Counted from the stretch's first letter, positions 18,448 to 23,160 are shown. The stretch: 64,000 nucleotides of DNA from an uncultured Bacilli bacterium (GCA_947629315.1 CANRDB010000001.1:4829-68828), one strand, 5' to 3'. Made by a program: numbers and translations. The notes: generated by a model not told the origin, from the sequence alone.

Positions 18448-18717
18448 ATGAATGATGAAATATATCAATATGCTCTACAAAAAATTGAGTGTGATAGTCA
18501 ATTCAAGCCAATTGGATGTTATGGTAATTCCCGTGGCAGTACTGGCCCAACTGGCCCTACCGGTCCGACTGGTCCCCAAGGACCCGCTAGCATCACCATA
18601 GGTACCACAACAACAGGCGCTCCAGGAACAAGTGCAGCTGTTACCAATTCTGGTACTAATCAAAATAGTATTTTAAATTTTGTGATTCCTGCAGGAGCAA
18701 CTGATGCTATGTCATAA
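18448..18717 (+). CDS. Collagen-like protein gene, segment 1 of 4. As it stands it is an 89-aa ORF whose last 5 codons and stop come from element IE-1
   Basis: AGGAGG SD and ATG at 18448. It encodes a 31-aa N-terminal region, then GSTGPTGPTGPTGPQGP, then the module ASITIGTTTTGAPGTSAAVTNSGTNQNSILNFVIPAGAT. The host part ends at 18700 inside GGAGCAA|CTG. Confidence 0.8.
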   Translation: MNDEIYQYALQKIECDSQFKPIGCYGNSRGSTGPTGPTGPTGPQGPASITIGTTTTGAPGTSAAVTNSGTNQNSILNFVIPAGATDAMS

Positions 18718-18726
18718 ATCACAAAA
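18688..18726. other. attL of IE-1
   Basis: cctgcaggAGCAACTGatgctatgtCATAAATCACAAAA. It shares the 8-nt core AGCAACTG with attR1. The outer arm is the inverted partner (13 of 14) of TTTTGTGGTTTATG at 23121. Confidence 0.65.
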
Positions 18727-18742
18727 AAAGAATTGATTAGAA

Positions 18743-20977
18743 TCAATCCTCAATTTCTTTAATCAACATTTGATATAACGCACGATTTCCTTCCTCTGTT
18801 AAATGAATTTTATCCACTCGTACATATTCTTTATGTTGTTGAATCTCTTCATAAAAAGGAATAATATGGAGAGACGATATTCCCAATGTTTCTAGTAATA
18901 TCTCGTCCTCTTCTGTCATCGCTACTACATATAACTCATTTTCTTGGCACAATTGGAAAACTGTTTGTATTTCTTGTTCCAATCTTGGTACCTGACTATC
19001 AAAAGCTACTACTAATCGATAAGTTAACGTATTACTATCCGCAGCTTTTTGAAGTTCTTGTTGCAAATCTTGCCAAGTAAAATCTTGCCGAACAATAAAC
19101 TGTGCTTGTTGATATTCCTGATGTAGTTCATTAAAAATATTCACTAAAACATCATTACCGTAAAAGGTAATTTTATTTTTTAATTCTTCTTCATGATGAT
19201 GAATAATCTCTTCTTTTTTCTGTTGATATCGATCTAGATAAACTTGATAAATAGATTGATAAATTAAGTTGGTGTAAGCCTTTCTTCCTTCTGGAGTTAA
19301 GTGGATACCATCCGCATAAAAATACTTTGAATGTCCTTGTGATGCAGTCTCCCAATCAATAATATGTAAATTAGAATGACTCTTACTTAACTCTTTTAAT
19401 TTACTATTTACATGGACATCTTTATCGTTAGTAACCGTAATCCAAAAGACATCTCTATCACCACACGTTTGTAAAATTTCTTCCTTACAAGAAGAAGAAC
19501 AATCTCCATTCGCACCCAAATTCAATATTACAGGATTACCTAACAGATTACTATCCTCTAATTCTTCTAAAATACCGTTCGCTACCCAAATAGAACGTGA
19601 TACCTTCGCATCAAAATATCCATTTGGAAATTGTTTATAGAGATTATCAACAGCTCCTAACATAATAGAATCCCCGACTCCAACTACGGATAACTCAGAA
19701 ACAATCTTTTGAATTTCTTGTTCCCCATTCTCTAAATCCTCTAAAACAGAGAACCAATCTTCTTGTTCCTGTTGTAATCGATCCGCATACTCTTTTTGTT
19801 TTTGTTGAATAACCTCTTCATTAGCCGCTAACTCTTCTTTTAGTCTTTTCATTTCTGCCGTATGATCCTTCGTTTGTGCATAACAATAAACACCAGGAAC
19901 ACAGATGACACACAATATGATAGCCATCGCTGCATGCATTCTCGTTCTAGCATGGGGTCGACTACTGATGCTAAAATGAAAAACGGAACCTACTACAAGC
20001 ACTCCTAAAAGAATCGATAAAATCCGTACAGAATCCGACATTGAAAAGGCTTGCAAAAAGTAAATAATCGGATACTGAACCAAGTAGATGCAATAACTTC
20101 TATCTGAAAACCAATGAACAATTCGGTTTCCTACCCCTGCTAATTTGTTTACCATCAAAGTACTATAATCAATCATCCGACAAGTAATAAGAGATACTAT
20201 CAACATTGCTACTGCCCAAGAAGGTGCAGAAGCATCGATTGTTAAAAATAACCAAACTAAGAGAACAAAATATCCTCCAAAAAGACCATAGGCAATCAGA
20301 GAATGTTTCATGTTTTTTAGAATAAGTGGATAATAATAAAACTGAATAAACCCTAAAGTCATTCCCCAAAATAAGGAAAACATTCTCGTAAACGTATGAT
20401 AGTAAACCACCATAATATCTTGCGTGCCACTCATTTGATAAAAATACCAAGCACTTCCTATCGATACTACCAATAATAGTAAACAAGGAATCATTTTATG
20501 AATATGATCTCCTATTTTACGTAATATTTGATAGAAGAATGGAAAAAGCAAATCAAATTGCAATAAAATAGAAATATACCATAAATGCATAAATGGAGAA
20601 TCTAAGTGTCTAGCAAAATAATCTAAATTCGCCCCTAATTGCCAAAAATTATTATATCCTAACAAAACAGATGTTGTCTCTGGTTTTAAATTCAACCATG
20701 TATACTGGGAACAAAAAAACACAACAAAAAGAGTTAAGAACACAGTCAATAACAAAGGAAAATATATTTTAGTAAACAGTCTCTTATAATATTCCCAAAT
20801 AGAAAAATGATTCTTATGAAAAGCTGAAACGCACGATAGATAGCCACTTAACACAAAGAAACAACAGACCGCTAAATAGCCTCCTTTTAAAACATGCAAA
20901 TGATAAAGCAAAACGGCAATGCATGATAACACTCGTAAATAATCTAGTGCATAATAATACTTCTTAGTACTTTCCAT
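18743..20977 (-). CDS. OatA-like O-acyltransferase: acyltransferase-3 membrane domain + coiled coil + SGNH hydrolase domain + extra C-terminal domain
   Basis: About 10 TM helices with the N-terminal YLRVLSCIAVLLYH motif, then VVGVGDSIMLGA (SGNH block I) and DGIHLT (block V). Confidence 0.8.
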   Translation of the reverse strand: MESTKKYYYALDYLRVLSCIAVLLYHLHVLKGGYLAVCCFFVLSGYLSCVSAFHKNHFSIWEYYKRLFTKIYFPLLLTVFLTLFVVFFCSQYTWLNLKPETTSVLLGYNNFWQLGANLDYFARHLDSPFMHLWYISILLQFDLLFPFFYQILRKIGDHIHKMIPCLLLLVVSIGSAWYFYQMSGTQDIMVVYYHTFTRMFSLFWGMTLGFIQFYYYPLILKNMKHSLIAYGLFGGYFVLLVWLFLTIDASAPSWAVAMLIVSLITCRMIDYSTLMVNKLAGVGNRIVHWFSDRSYCIYLVQYPIIYFLQAFSMSDSVRILSILLGVLVVGSVFHFSISSRPHARTRMHAAMAIILCVICVPGVYCYAQTKDHTAEMKRLKEELAANEEVIQQKQKEYADRLQQEQEDWFSVLEDLENGEQEIQKIVSELSVVGVGDSIMLGAVDNLYKQFPNGYFDAKVSRSIWVANGILEELEDSNLLGNPVILNLGANGDCSSSCKEEILQTCGDRDVFWITVTNDKDVHVNSKLKELSKSHSNLHIIDWETASQGHSKYFYADGIHLTPEGRKAYTNLIYQSIYQVYLDRYQQKKEEIIHHHEEELKNKITFYGNDVLVNIFNELHQEYQQAQFIVRQDFTWQDLQQELQKAADSNTLTYRLVVAFDSQVPRLEQEIQTVFQLCQENELYVVAMTEEDEILLETLGISSLHIIPFYEEIQQHKEYVRVDKIHLTEEGNRALYQMLIKEIED

Positions 20978-21122
20978 ATTTCAAACCTCATTCATTGTGA
21001 TTATATATCATAAAGCCTTAAAATTCAAGACACTTTACGTCAATCCTAACTAATATTTTGTGAGAAAAAAACATGATTATTTGTTTCATTTTATTTTATG
21101 CAATTAGAAAGGAGTTATACTG

Positions 21123-23120
21123 TTGAATCAAAAAAGAGTGGCATTATATCTACGATTATCCAAAGAAGATATCGACAAGCCAACCAAGTTCTCTATCAGC
21201 GAAAGTATCAAAAATCAAGAACTATTACTGCGTGAAGAAGTGAAAAAACACCCTGATTGGGTCGTAGTAGCTGTCTATTCTGATGAAGACTTTTCAGGAG
21301 CAGGAACTTATCGACCAAGCTTTGACAAAATGATTCATGCCTGTGAAAAGCACATGATTGATATCATTCTCTGTAAAAGTCAGTCCCGTTTTTCTAGAGA
21401 TATGGAATTAATTGAAAAATATATTCATAACAAATTTAAAGAATGGAATATACGATTCATTAGTATCGTAGATAATGCCGATACTGATAACGATGGCAAT
21501 AAAAAATCTAGACAGATTAATGCTCTTGTCAATGAATGGTTTCTAGAGGATTTATCCGATAATATTCGGGCAACTTTACGAACAAAATGGCAGCATGGAG
21601 AATGTACCGCTGCTTTCGCTAAATATGGATTTCTAAAAGATCCCCAACATAAAAATCACCTAATCATAGATACGGTTGCTAGTCAAACCATTCAAGAAAT
21701 TGCTCATCTCTTTTTAGAGGGAAAAGGTCCAGAAACCATCGCTCACATTTTAGAACAGAAGCATATTCCTAGTCCTTATGAATACAAACTACAAATGGGA
21801 AGTAAACTAAAAATTCCTTTGCTTTCCTTAAACCATCCAAAAATAATTACTAAAAACGGAAAATATATTTTTACCCTTTTTCCAAGTGGAGAACCAATAG
21901 ACCATGTCGTCCTATCCATCCTACCATTTCAAGATTACGATATGACACTAACTCTCATAAAACAAAGTGGCAATGTAAAGGTTTATTATTCCCAGGAGAA
22001 ATTCTCTTCTGCTATCGAAACCGTATTGCCGGTTGAACATTCTTCATTTTGGAGACAATTGCCTATCAATCTTTCTATTTCTCATATTCAACTACTGGCT
22101 ATCTATTGTCTTCCAAACAATTTAGAAAAAACTTATTTAGAATGGGAAATAAACATCCATACCCTACCGTCTCATGATTTTTCTTTAAACATCCAATCCT
22201 TTGATGCAATACACCAACCAATTGATTTTTGGCAGTATCGAATCAGAAAAAAATATCAGTGGAATAGTCGGACAATCTATCACATTTTGAAAGATGAAAC
22301 TTATCATGGTACCTTAATTCAAGGAAAAACAAAGCGAATCAGTTATAAAAATCATACTAGTATTGCTACTCCCAAAGAGCAATGGTATGTTCAAGAAAAT
22401 ATTCTCCCTAAAATTCTAGATGATCAAACTTGGATAGCTATTCAAAATAAATTACAACTACATCCACGCGCAAGCAAAAATGGAAAACACCCTATCTTTA
22501 CTGGAAAAGTTTTTTGTGGAGTATGTGGAAAACCTCTTCAAAAAAACTCGAGCAGTTCTCTTGCTTCCCCTGTTAAAAAAGAATATTTAATTTGTAAAGC
22601 AAGAAAAGAACATTGGAAGAATTGTGAAAACAAAAAATCATTTCCCGTTTTAGAATTACAAAAATTAATCATTACTCAATTTCAAAATTTATGGAATTCC
22701 TATTACGATATGACTACCTTAAAGCAGATTCATAAGGAAGAACCCCATCATCAAACTATAGACGATCTCATGAAAGAAGAACAAAATTTACAAGAAATTA
22801 TCCAGCAGAATAACCAAATTCTTTATCAATTATACAAAGATAAAAGCACTGGCCTCATGGATGATTCTTGTTTTCATACCCTACTTCTACAAAATCAACA
22901 GGAAATGGATACTTATCACCAAAGATTGCAAATGATTGCCCAAGAGTTAAAACAGATTCAAACGAAACAGGAATTTTTCATGTCTACTGTGTGTGAATTT
23001 CTCAATACTCATTCCTTTGAAGACTATTTTTCAACCATTCTACAGCATTTTATTAGCAGCATTTTCATTGGAAAGCTGAACCATCATCAAAGAACAATCC
23101 AAATTCATTGGAAAATCTAA
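21123..23120 (+). CDS. Large serine recombinase Rec1 (665 aa, TTG start)
   Basis: [12 protein letters not shown] (catalytic Ser), [10 protein letters not shown], a recombinase domain, a zinc ribbon (CGVCGKP...[11 protein letters not shown]), a coiled coil and a C-terminal IQIHWKI tail. AGGAG SD 7 nt before the TTG. Carries about 150 extra aa compared with Rec2. Confidence 0.9.
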
Positions 23121-23160
23121 TTTTGTGGTTTATGTCTTTGCAGCAACTGGTCCTACGGGG
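23121..23160. other. attR of IE-1
   Basis: TTTTGTGGTTTATGtctttgcAGCAACTGgtcctacgggg. The arm starts 1 nt after the Rec1 TAA stop. Confidence 0.65.

Follow-up and report, generated by a model that had tools for sequence, protein, structure and literature searches.

We analysed a 64,000-nt stretch of DNA from an uncultured Bacilli bacterium (GCA_947629315.1, CANRDB010000001.1:4829-68828; hereafter the window, at its full length) and found that IE-1, an element of 4446 bp at 18701..23146, interrupts a collagen-like gene. IE-1 is probably a non-phage large serine recombinase (LSR) element whose recombinase, Rec1, would rebuild the gene by excision, possibly during sporulation. Our analysis establishes the boundaries of the element, its symmetric attP, intact recombinases, the in-frame restoration of the gene, the conservation of the module together with its attP, and the frequent interruption of this gene family. 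A previous reading of the bare sequence (the sequence-only reading) had described IE-1 as an LSR element with an acyltransferase as cargo. The observation is real and its structural interpretation was right, but that reading lacked the collagen-like target gene, the frame restored on removal, and the position of IE-1 as the first of three tandem elements.

The interrupted gene consists of four plus-strand segments, which we call exons. Exon 1 (18448..18699) encodes an N-terminal Cys-containing region, a Gly-X-Y (GXY) run and a first beta-domain (...LNFVIPAGA); unspliced, its open reading frame (ORF) continues to a TAA at 18715-18717, within the element arm. The right flank of IE-1 carries on with GXY codons in the exon 1 frame. 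Exon 2 (23146..23262, 117 nt) encodes GXY throughout, as does the 45-nt exon 3 (26100..26144), and exon 4 (29442..29834) comprises a long GXY run, a second beta-domain and the stop. Exons 2 and 3 are separated by IE-2 (23263..26099, 2837 bp), exons 3 and 4 by IE-3 (26145..29441, 3297 bp); none of the three elements is assigned a strand, and their sites are all in direct orientation. The short exons are all in frame and stop-free. When all three elements were removed in silico, the four exons joined in frame to an unbroken protein of 268 aa, in which uninterrupted GXY repeats lie between two short beta-domains. The spliced protein matched Pfam Collagen (E=6.6×10−21), whereas exon 1 alone was without Pfam hit; no Pfam match beyond the collagen repeat and no match to a characterised spore protein were obtained. 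The same architecture is found in the intact homologues P0124, P0131, P0137, P0144 and P0148.

Both junctions of IE-1, its ORFs and every sequence feature listed by the sequence-only reading were found at their coordinates. attL (18688..18726, plus strand) consists of the host half cctgcaggagca, the crossover AC at 18700-18701 and the element half tgatgctatgtCATAAATCACAAAA, and attR (23121..23159, plus strand) of the element half TTTTGTGGTTTATGtctttgcagca, the crossover AC at 23146-23147 and the host half tggtcctacggg; the ends of the element are ambiguous by this 2-nt crossover. Joining the element-side halves reconstructs attP1 as TCTAATTTTGTGGTTTATGTCTTTGCAGCA-AC-TGATGCTATGTCATAAATCACAAAAAAAGA, or in short form TGTGGTTTA-N13-AC-N13-TAAATCACA, with dyad symmetry at 23 of 30 positions per half around AC (p<5×10−6). 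The 14-nt arms claimed previously were recovered on recomputation (13 of 14 positions in inverted match, spaced 11+AC+11; inner halves 7 of 11). As a composition-matched control we combined randomly paired window positions into 200,000 chimeric sites. Their scores averaged 8.2 (sd 2.5) with a maximum of 21, so that none reached the 23/30 of attP1, and the probability of a best 14-nt arm of at least 13 matches was 1.5×10−5. The unrecombined attL and attR are asymmetric (12/30 and 11/30), as expected of hybrid sites. One attP arm begins right after the Rec1 stop codon and, at the other end of the element, the arm begins 16 nt before the stop of the acyltransferase ORF. Symmetry around AC was also found in attP2 (19/30) and in attP3 (GTGCCACTT-N13-AC-N13-AAGTGGCAC; 22/30).

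The target of IE-1, attB1, is a quasi-palindromic CCTGCAGGAGCA-AC-TGGTCCTACGGG within the GXY repeat region. Its inner dyad of 9 of 12 positions is as the sequence-only reading gave it (window-wide P(≥9)=0.0008); over 30 nt per half the symmetry is weak (12/30). Among the 51 AC-centred positions of the spliced host gene, only two scored 9 or more, namely the insertion points of IE-1 (9) and IE-2 (10). A pseudo-palindromic attP of ~50 bp with a 2-bp AC centre identical in attB agrees with the expectation for LSR att sites (PMC5595907, PMC3783163). The predicted junction of the rejoined gene is ATTCCTGCAGGAGCAACTGGTCCTACGGGG, and that of the excised circle GTCTTTGCAGCAACTGATGCTATGTC.

The two junctions of IE-1 share the 8-nt core AGCAACTG (18696-18703 and 23142-23149, spacing 4446 bp). 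This core occurs seven times in the window against 1.23 expected copies (0 of 100 shuffles reached seven); the junctions of IE-1 and IE-2 account for four of these occurrences. IE-2 is bounded by AGCAACTG at 23259 and 26096, with GGAGCAACTG as the identity block of its attL and attR; IE-3 is bounded by ACTG at 26145 and 29442, 45 bp past IE-2. Across elements the attL/attR identity blocks are AGCAACTG, GGAGCAACTG, ACTG, AGCAAC and CAAC, and their sole common part is AC. Because AC is also the dyad centre in every element examined, we pinned the crossover to this dinucleotide, with which a Thr codon begins at the IE-1 site. It follows that IE-1 owes its 8-nt core to host codons of the collagen repeat (Gly-Ala-Thr-Gly): the core is present as previously described, but it is not a requirement of the element. 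Exon 3 is barely long enough for the right half of attB2 plus the left half of attB3, and its 45 nt therefore allow attB half-sites of no more than about 22 bp.

Left of attB1, the motif AATTTTGTGATT (18676-18690) resembles the attP arm AATTTTGTGGTT, placed 3 bp nearer the crossover; a published model predicts a 5-bp shift (PMC3783163). We treated the likeness as probably coincidental because conserved NFVIP residues are encoded by the motif and because it does not occur at the site in a related genome (L006, below), which was inserted elsewhere in the repeat. Two further plus-strand GXY-like stretches, considered together with extra AGCAACTG copies at 31432, 37042 and 37650, were rejected as split collagen genes: 31697-31858 is antisense of the Pro/Ala/Val-rich N-terminus of a minus-strand membrane protein (30961-31899), and 38771-38863 lies inside a minus-strand clostripain-family ORF (36709-38907).

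Rec1 (21123..23120, plus strand) is an intact LSR of 665 aa with a TTG start behind AGGAG, and is predicted to catalyse recombination of attP with attB and of attL with attR. Pfam identified the domains Resolvase (PF00239, E=7×10−19), Recombinase (PF07508) and Zn_ribbon_recom (PF13408). In an alignment of 19 homologues, the catalytic serine S13 and R11 of the YLRLS motif as well as R89 and R92 of SRFSRD were invariant or nearly so, and the zinc-ribbon residues C465, C468, C491 and C501 were invariant. The AlphaFold2 model (mean pLDDT 75) has long helices at residues 509-629 and matched full-length serine integrase-DNA structures determined by cryo-electron microscopy and crystallography (Foldseek: 9y66, 9dxh, PhiC31 9rah and LI integrase 4kis); the catalytic domain also resembled the clostridial transposon recombinase structures 3g13 and 2mhc. 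Compared with Rec2, the recombinase of IE-2, Rec1 carries ~145 extra amino acids in its recombinase domain (residues 236-378; window 21828-22256). This insert is predicted to be beta-rich (pLDDT about 60-85), and a structure search with it gave no significant match. The closest homologues of Rec1 are only 44-48% identical, yet the insert is present in them, and it is common to a clade of 640-700-aa recombinases; many homologues bear a DUF4368 C-terminal region. Scanning a genome collection with Rec1 yielded only relatives of 57% identity or less. XisF was the top-ranked NCBIfam model for both Rec1 and Rec3 (the recombinase of IE-3), far under the family cutoff (68 and 92 bits versus 375), and weak Ccr matches were seen as well.

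We rejected the possibility that IE-1 is a prophage or a prophage remnant. Its PHROG matches were confined to the integrase and an acetylase, with no phage structural, replication or lysis genes. Viral contigs yielded no relative, and the best match among phage records was 37% identical over 54% of Rec1; the lack of a close relative in phage and viral collections argues against a prophage origin.

Related loci show the same module in other genomes. In a rabbit-gut Bacilli metagenome-assembled genome (GCA_947626275.1; L006) and in two loci from other samples (L007 and L008), with 71-80% nucleotide identity to the host genes of the window, a homologous collagen-like gene stands after a SecA gene and before the GT2-TPR gene and is split by three LSR elements. 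Element B of L006 encodes a 744-aa acyltransferase (50% identical to that of IE-1), a 679-aa Rec1 homologue (46%), a UPRTase and a permease. The attP of this element reads TGTGGTTTA-N13-AC-N13-TAAACCAAA, which gives with the window the consensus TGTGGTTTA-N13-AC-N13-TAAAyCAmA. Element A of L006 resembles IE-3, with recombinases that are 65% identical and common GTGCCACTT arms. Further Rec1-type recombinases lie in other collagen-like genes (L001 and L009-L012), and the attP plan is kept in L006, L001 and L009 at a recombinase identity of only 46%; the attP centre of L009 reads GT because its host gene is on the other strand.

A metagenome scan with the family alignment returned mostly short-form relatives, which were used solely as a background set for adjacency to collagen genes. 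Out of 92 related loci examined, all ten long-form clade loci (10/10: L001 and L006-L015; identity 44-48%, and 35% for L013-L015) abut GXY-coding DNA, as against few among the about 76 short-form relatives. A long-form relative with 34% identity (L016, 2130-2260) sits at a CCAACTGGT core in the ATPase motif of an ABC transporter (EPTGALDSKTG), not in a collagen gene.

Interruption of the gene family itself was frequent. The 251 database homologues of exon 1 all have 151 aa or fewer. Among the best 120 of these 251, at least 37 end right after a Thr codon of the repeat and continue into recurrent non-collagen tails (such as ARCNKSSIYIFKW, [APE]R[LF]F.SS.K and ETYKSV), which are translated element arms, and at least 13 are short, uninterrupted genes that share the two-domain architecture. 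One intact allele, from among the five homologues named above, is located in a contig of a spore-former, with no recombinase nearby. The cargo of the elements varies across relatives from none to four genes.

Two of these loci deserve a separate description. In L001, the Rec1-type element (4660-7090, ~2.4 kb) has a 76-aa collagen-like ORF as its sole cargo; its attL is ACTG-N11-TAAACCAAA, its attR GTGGTTTA-N13-AC, and a second LSR element (530-aa recombinase plus ATPase) is found directly upstream. L093 (GCA_964018915.1, 10001-12549) is 77% identical to the window at the nucleotide level from ftsK to gerM, with gerE between spoIIIAH and gerM. An element that opens with a UPRTase and a permease, the cargo pair of L006 element B, interrupts the collagen-like gene of L093 after ...GSTGAT.

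We propose that IE-1 entered by recombination of attP with attB at AC in the GXY region of the collagen-like gene. Rec1 dimers would bind the 25-30-bp pseudo-palindromic halves of attP, the outer arm TGTGGTTTA being placed 13 bp from the crossover, and would cut at AC; recombination of attL with attR would then free IE-1 as a circle of 4446 bp and reconnect the two gene flanks in frame. IE-2 and IE-3 would act through their own recombinases and attP arms at the common AC crossover, 117 and 45 bp further along, and the 268-aa protein would be made only once all three elements have left. The OatA-type acyltransferase could be expressed from the integrated state. As with skin, SPbeta, vfbin and gin, excision may be linked to sporulation, with a germ line that keeps the elements and a terminal mother cell that rebuilds the gene. 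The LSR mechanism behind these steps has been described (PMC3783163, PMC5595907), as have a 25-bp attP half-site (PMC3783163), the symmetric-attP rule and gene-intervening LSR elements (PMC5595907).

The host protein may be a BclA-like spore-surface glycoprotein made in the mother cell. This reading is suggested by the lack of an export signal (the protein sequence has neither a signal peptide nor a sortase-type sorting motif), by the Cys-containing N-terminus and by the neighbourhood. A GT2-TPR glycosyltransferase gene (29840..30925, plus strand) lies directly downstream of the host gene and is kept in L006 with 66% identity, spoIIIAH and gerM lie 4-6 kb upstream, and gerE is found close by in L093.

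Several points weigh against excision by Rec1 as a developmental event. Excision is predicted from the att sites and the recombinase, its timing in sporulation is what we infer from the systems named above, and the spore-surface assignment of the host protein draws on genomic context. The window and L006 do not agree in element order or in the repeat units that were hit; a developmental device merely inherited in fixed form therefore does not account for the arrangement. A simple pattern scan revealed no sigma-E- or sigma-K-like promoter upstream of the recombinases or the host gene, and a scan with the sigma-70 consensus found no more sites than in shuffles. Finally, IE-1 has no candidate directionality factor. 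Many recombinases of the family, among them Rec2, Rec3 and those of L006, have a conserved small ORF immediately before or overlapping their start; it encodes 29-56 aa with the approximate pattern MKYNIE.I..F....FN.KLL.LL, and in L006 it is found at 9874-9993 and 3321-3434 (39 aa in element B). Neither Pfam nor PHROG matched this ORF, which we consider a candidate directionality or regulatory factor; IE-1 has none before Rec1, and L009-L012 lack it as well.

Among the alternatives, ordinary selfish insertion fares best, and we regard it as possible but not probable. The elements would then use the collagen repeat only as a safe landing pad, repetitive and quasi-palindromic, in a gene that is dispensable and need not be regained by the host, and excision would serve transfer only. 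Such behaviour would fit insertion points that vary by genome, the different collagen-like genes hit in L001 and L009, the use of a CCAACTGGT core in an ABC-ATPase gene by the 34%-identical relative, the variable cargo, the coexistence of intact and interrupted alleles, and the missing sporulation promoter. It accounts less well for short exons that are without exception in frame and stop-free, and for the very frequent interrupted alleles. No transfer genes were detected in the elements by Pfam and PHROG scans. Moreover, recombinases and attP arms have stayed intact in the corresponding gene of another species at only 46% protein identity, which suggests selection for precise excision.

It is improbable that IE-1 is a locked-in relic that cannot excise for want of a directionality factor and leaves the collagen-like gene permanently truncated in this strain. 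LSR excision normally needs a recombination directionality factor (RDF; PMC3783163, PMC5595907). IE-1 is without the small ORF of the family, its intergenic region upstream of Rec1 has 145 nt compared with 256 nt in L006, and the neighbouring secA2-like gene is disrupted too, apparently by a frameshift. Against this stand a full-length Rec1 with all catalytic and zinc-binding residues, and an attL and attR that still rebuild the 23/30 dyad with 13/14 arms. An RDF could also act in trans, and some relatives in the Rec1 branch (TnpX, TndX and CcrAB) excise without one.

We consider it very unlikely that the elements form a phase-variation-like on/off switch of a vegetative surface protein, in which excision and re-integration would create mixed populations. 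Three independent locks could yield combinatorial states, and envelope-related cargo is present in all three elements (a membrane acyltransferase, a zinc-ribbon membrane protein and a probable lipoprotein). Yet vegetative export would be unexplained for a host protein without signal peptide or sortase motif, the circles have no replication function, such that re-integration would have to outrun dilution, and with sites that are all direct there is no invertible arrangement. That repeats and dyad arose by chance in AT-rich, repeat-rich sequence with no element present can be dismissed: the 8-nt core does belong to a repeated codon pattern with seven window copies, but no chimeric control site attained the observed dyad, the arms lie directly beside the recombinase stop codon, and the same plan recurs in two neighbouring elements and in four from other genomes.

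The closest known system to the proposed Rec1-mediated excision from the collagen-like gene is gin in gerE of Bacillus cereus ATCC 10987 (recombinase GirC, RDF GirX), likewise a non-prophage LSR element with a short consensus and an imperfect inverted repeat, whose excision rebuilds a small coding region (PMC5595907). gin differs in being a single element with three recombinase genes and in its proven RDF and sporulation timing. Here, three elements with their own att sites share one repetitive collagen-like gene, IE-1 comes without a candidate RDF, and the timing is deduced by analogy. Skin (sigK, SpoIVCA), SPbeta (spsM, SprA/SprB), vfbin and yin (yabG) are alike in that an LSR makes a precise deletion that restores a mother-cell gene and the germ line keeps the element. 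In contrast to the 4.4-kb IE-1, which has no phage genes, they are prophages or remnants of roughly 20-135 kb. XisF of cyanobacteria is likewise an LSR and removes the fdxN element from the gene that it interrupts in heterocysts, which are terminally differentiated; it differs from Rec1 in phylum and target, and the XisF-model scores of Rec1 and Rec3 fall far short of the family cutoff.

Two systems outside development are similar in other respects. TnpX (Tn4451) and TndX (Tn5397) belong to the same LSR branch as Rec1 and move small non-phage elements with a cargo gene. They insert at GA dinucleotides with low target specificity, whereas Rec1 has the extra ~145-aa domain and a specific, conserved attP and attB. 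SCCmec cassettes resemble the present arrangement in that serine recombinase (CcrAB, CcrC) cassettes stack in tandem at one chromosomal gene (PMC5595907). Their integration is confined to one site at the 3' end of a gene, which is left undisrupted, in contrast to the three different recombinases and three sites inside a coding repeat found here.

More speculatively, the LSR clade with the ~145-aa insert might be a hitherto undescribed one specialised on GXY-coding DNA. In gut spore-forming Bacilli, several independent mini-elements might routinely stack inside one spore-surface collagen-like gene and act as a multi-lock switch, so that the protein would be made only once each lock has been excised in the mother cell. 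Partial excision would then make the surface differ from spore to spore, and envelope-modifying cargo would be expressed only from the integrated state of the germ line. We offer this extension tentatively and think it doubtful as a whole.

The cargo of IE-1 (18743..20977, minus strand) encodes a 744-aa acyltransferase. The sequence-only reading had identified it as an AT3/SGNH O-acyltransferase, and this assignment held. Acyl_transf_3 (PF01757) matched residues 9-332 (Pfam, E=2.7×10−22), and the SGNH domain (residues 433-575) aligned to the C-terminal domain of Staphylococcus aureus OatA (6VJP, E=1×10−22) with the GDS and DGIH (DxxH) motifs kept. OatA and the phage Oac-type O-antigen acetylases likewise combine AT3 with an SGNH domain bearing GDS and DxxH; the cargo differs by a C-terminal extension of ~170 aa. 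By eye, this part (residues about 576-744; 18743-19250) contains motifs like those of a second, degenerate SGNH domain (GND for GDS; DKIH). No NCBIfam equivalog was matched. The architecture is OatA-type, and peptidoglycan MurNAc O-acetylation is a putative function.

Such a cargo had been called unexpected in so small an element, a view that our results temper: the best phage-family match was an 'O-antigen acetylase' of the moron category (phrog_6705, E=4.6×10−33; PHROG), and the homologous element of L006 carries the same gene at 50% identity. The protein has a 100%-identical database entry (P0241) and numerous homologues of about 745 aa (47-52% identical), which in three of three contexts inspected were ordinary, recombinase-free chromosomal genes. 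The cargo thus resembles a core-type envelope gene carried along by this element lineage in the window and in L006. In L098 (6126-10229), a chromosomal homologue lies near murG, murB, ftsA and ftsZ, with a collagen/BclA_C-type gene 1.3-2 kb away, which hints at a functional link of the acyltransferase family with collagen-like or cell-wall loci. It is plausible that the cargo would confer a surface modification for as long as IE-1 is integrated, as proposed in the sequence-only reading.

The acyltransferase gene and rec1 diverge from an intergenic region of 145 nt (20978..21122, no strand assigned). IE-2 encodes on the minus strand the 504-aa Rec2 (23282-24796), a 49-aa ORF that overlaps the Rec2 start (24768-24917), and a zinc-ribbon membrane protein of 342 aa (24984-26012). 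On the plus strand, IE-3 encodes a 464-aa coiled-coil protein with a lipoprotein-like N-terminus (26257-27651), a 29-aa ORF (27735-27824) and the 529-aa Rec3 (27831-29420). Just upstream of the collagen-like gene, the secA2-like gene is broken into two ORFs (14652-15368 and 15400-18366) that do not share a frame, and the gap between them takes up about 12 positions of the SecA_DEAD profile. The break may reflect a frameshift, pseudogene formation or an error of sequencing; in L006 the counterpart is one ORF of 1144 aa. Elsewhere the window contains two tRNA genes (14452-14525 and 59427-59499) and a T-box leader (42563-42743) upstream of a 457-aa ORF (41207-42580).

To our knowledge, gene-intervening elements excised by serine recombinases have been described in a few sporulation genes, each of which contains a single element. 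Full-text literature searches retrieved no paper that links collagen-like genes with large serine recombinases, serine integrases or attB, or the exosporium with excision. New relative to the known class are the repetitive collagen-like target and the presence of three elements with three recombinases in one gene, all with AC as crossover; new as well are the recombinase subfamily with an extra domain and its recurrence in many uncultured gut Bacilli.

Taken together, our findings define a recombinase subfamily that bears an extra domain and show that dozens of metagenomic alleles of a collagen-like family are cut at the same codon position. In practical terms, they provide several natural sets of recombinase, attP and attB for orthogonality tests, with a conserved attP plan, an attB of ~26 bp and one common crossover dinucleotide. 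If excision is not developmental, coding repeats can serve mobile elements as landing pads. If it is developmental, programmed DNA rearrangement would extend to structural genes of the spore surface and to multi-element 'locks'.

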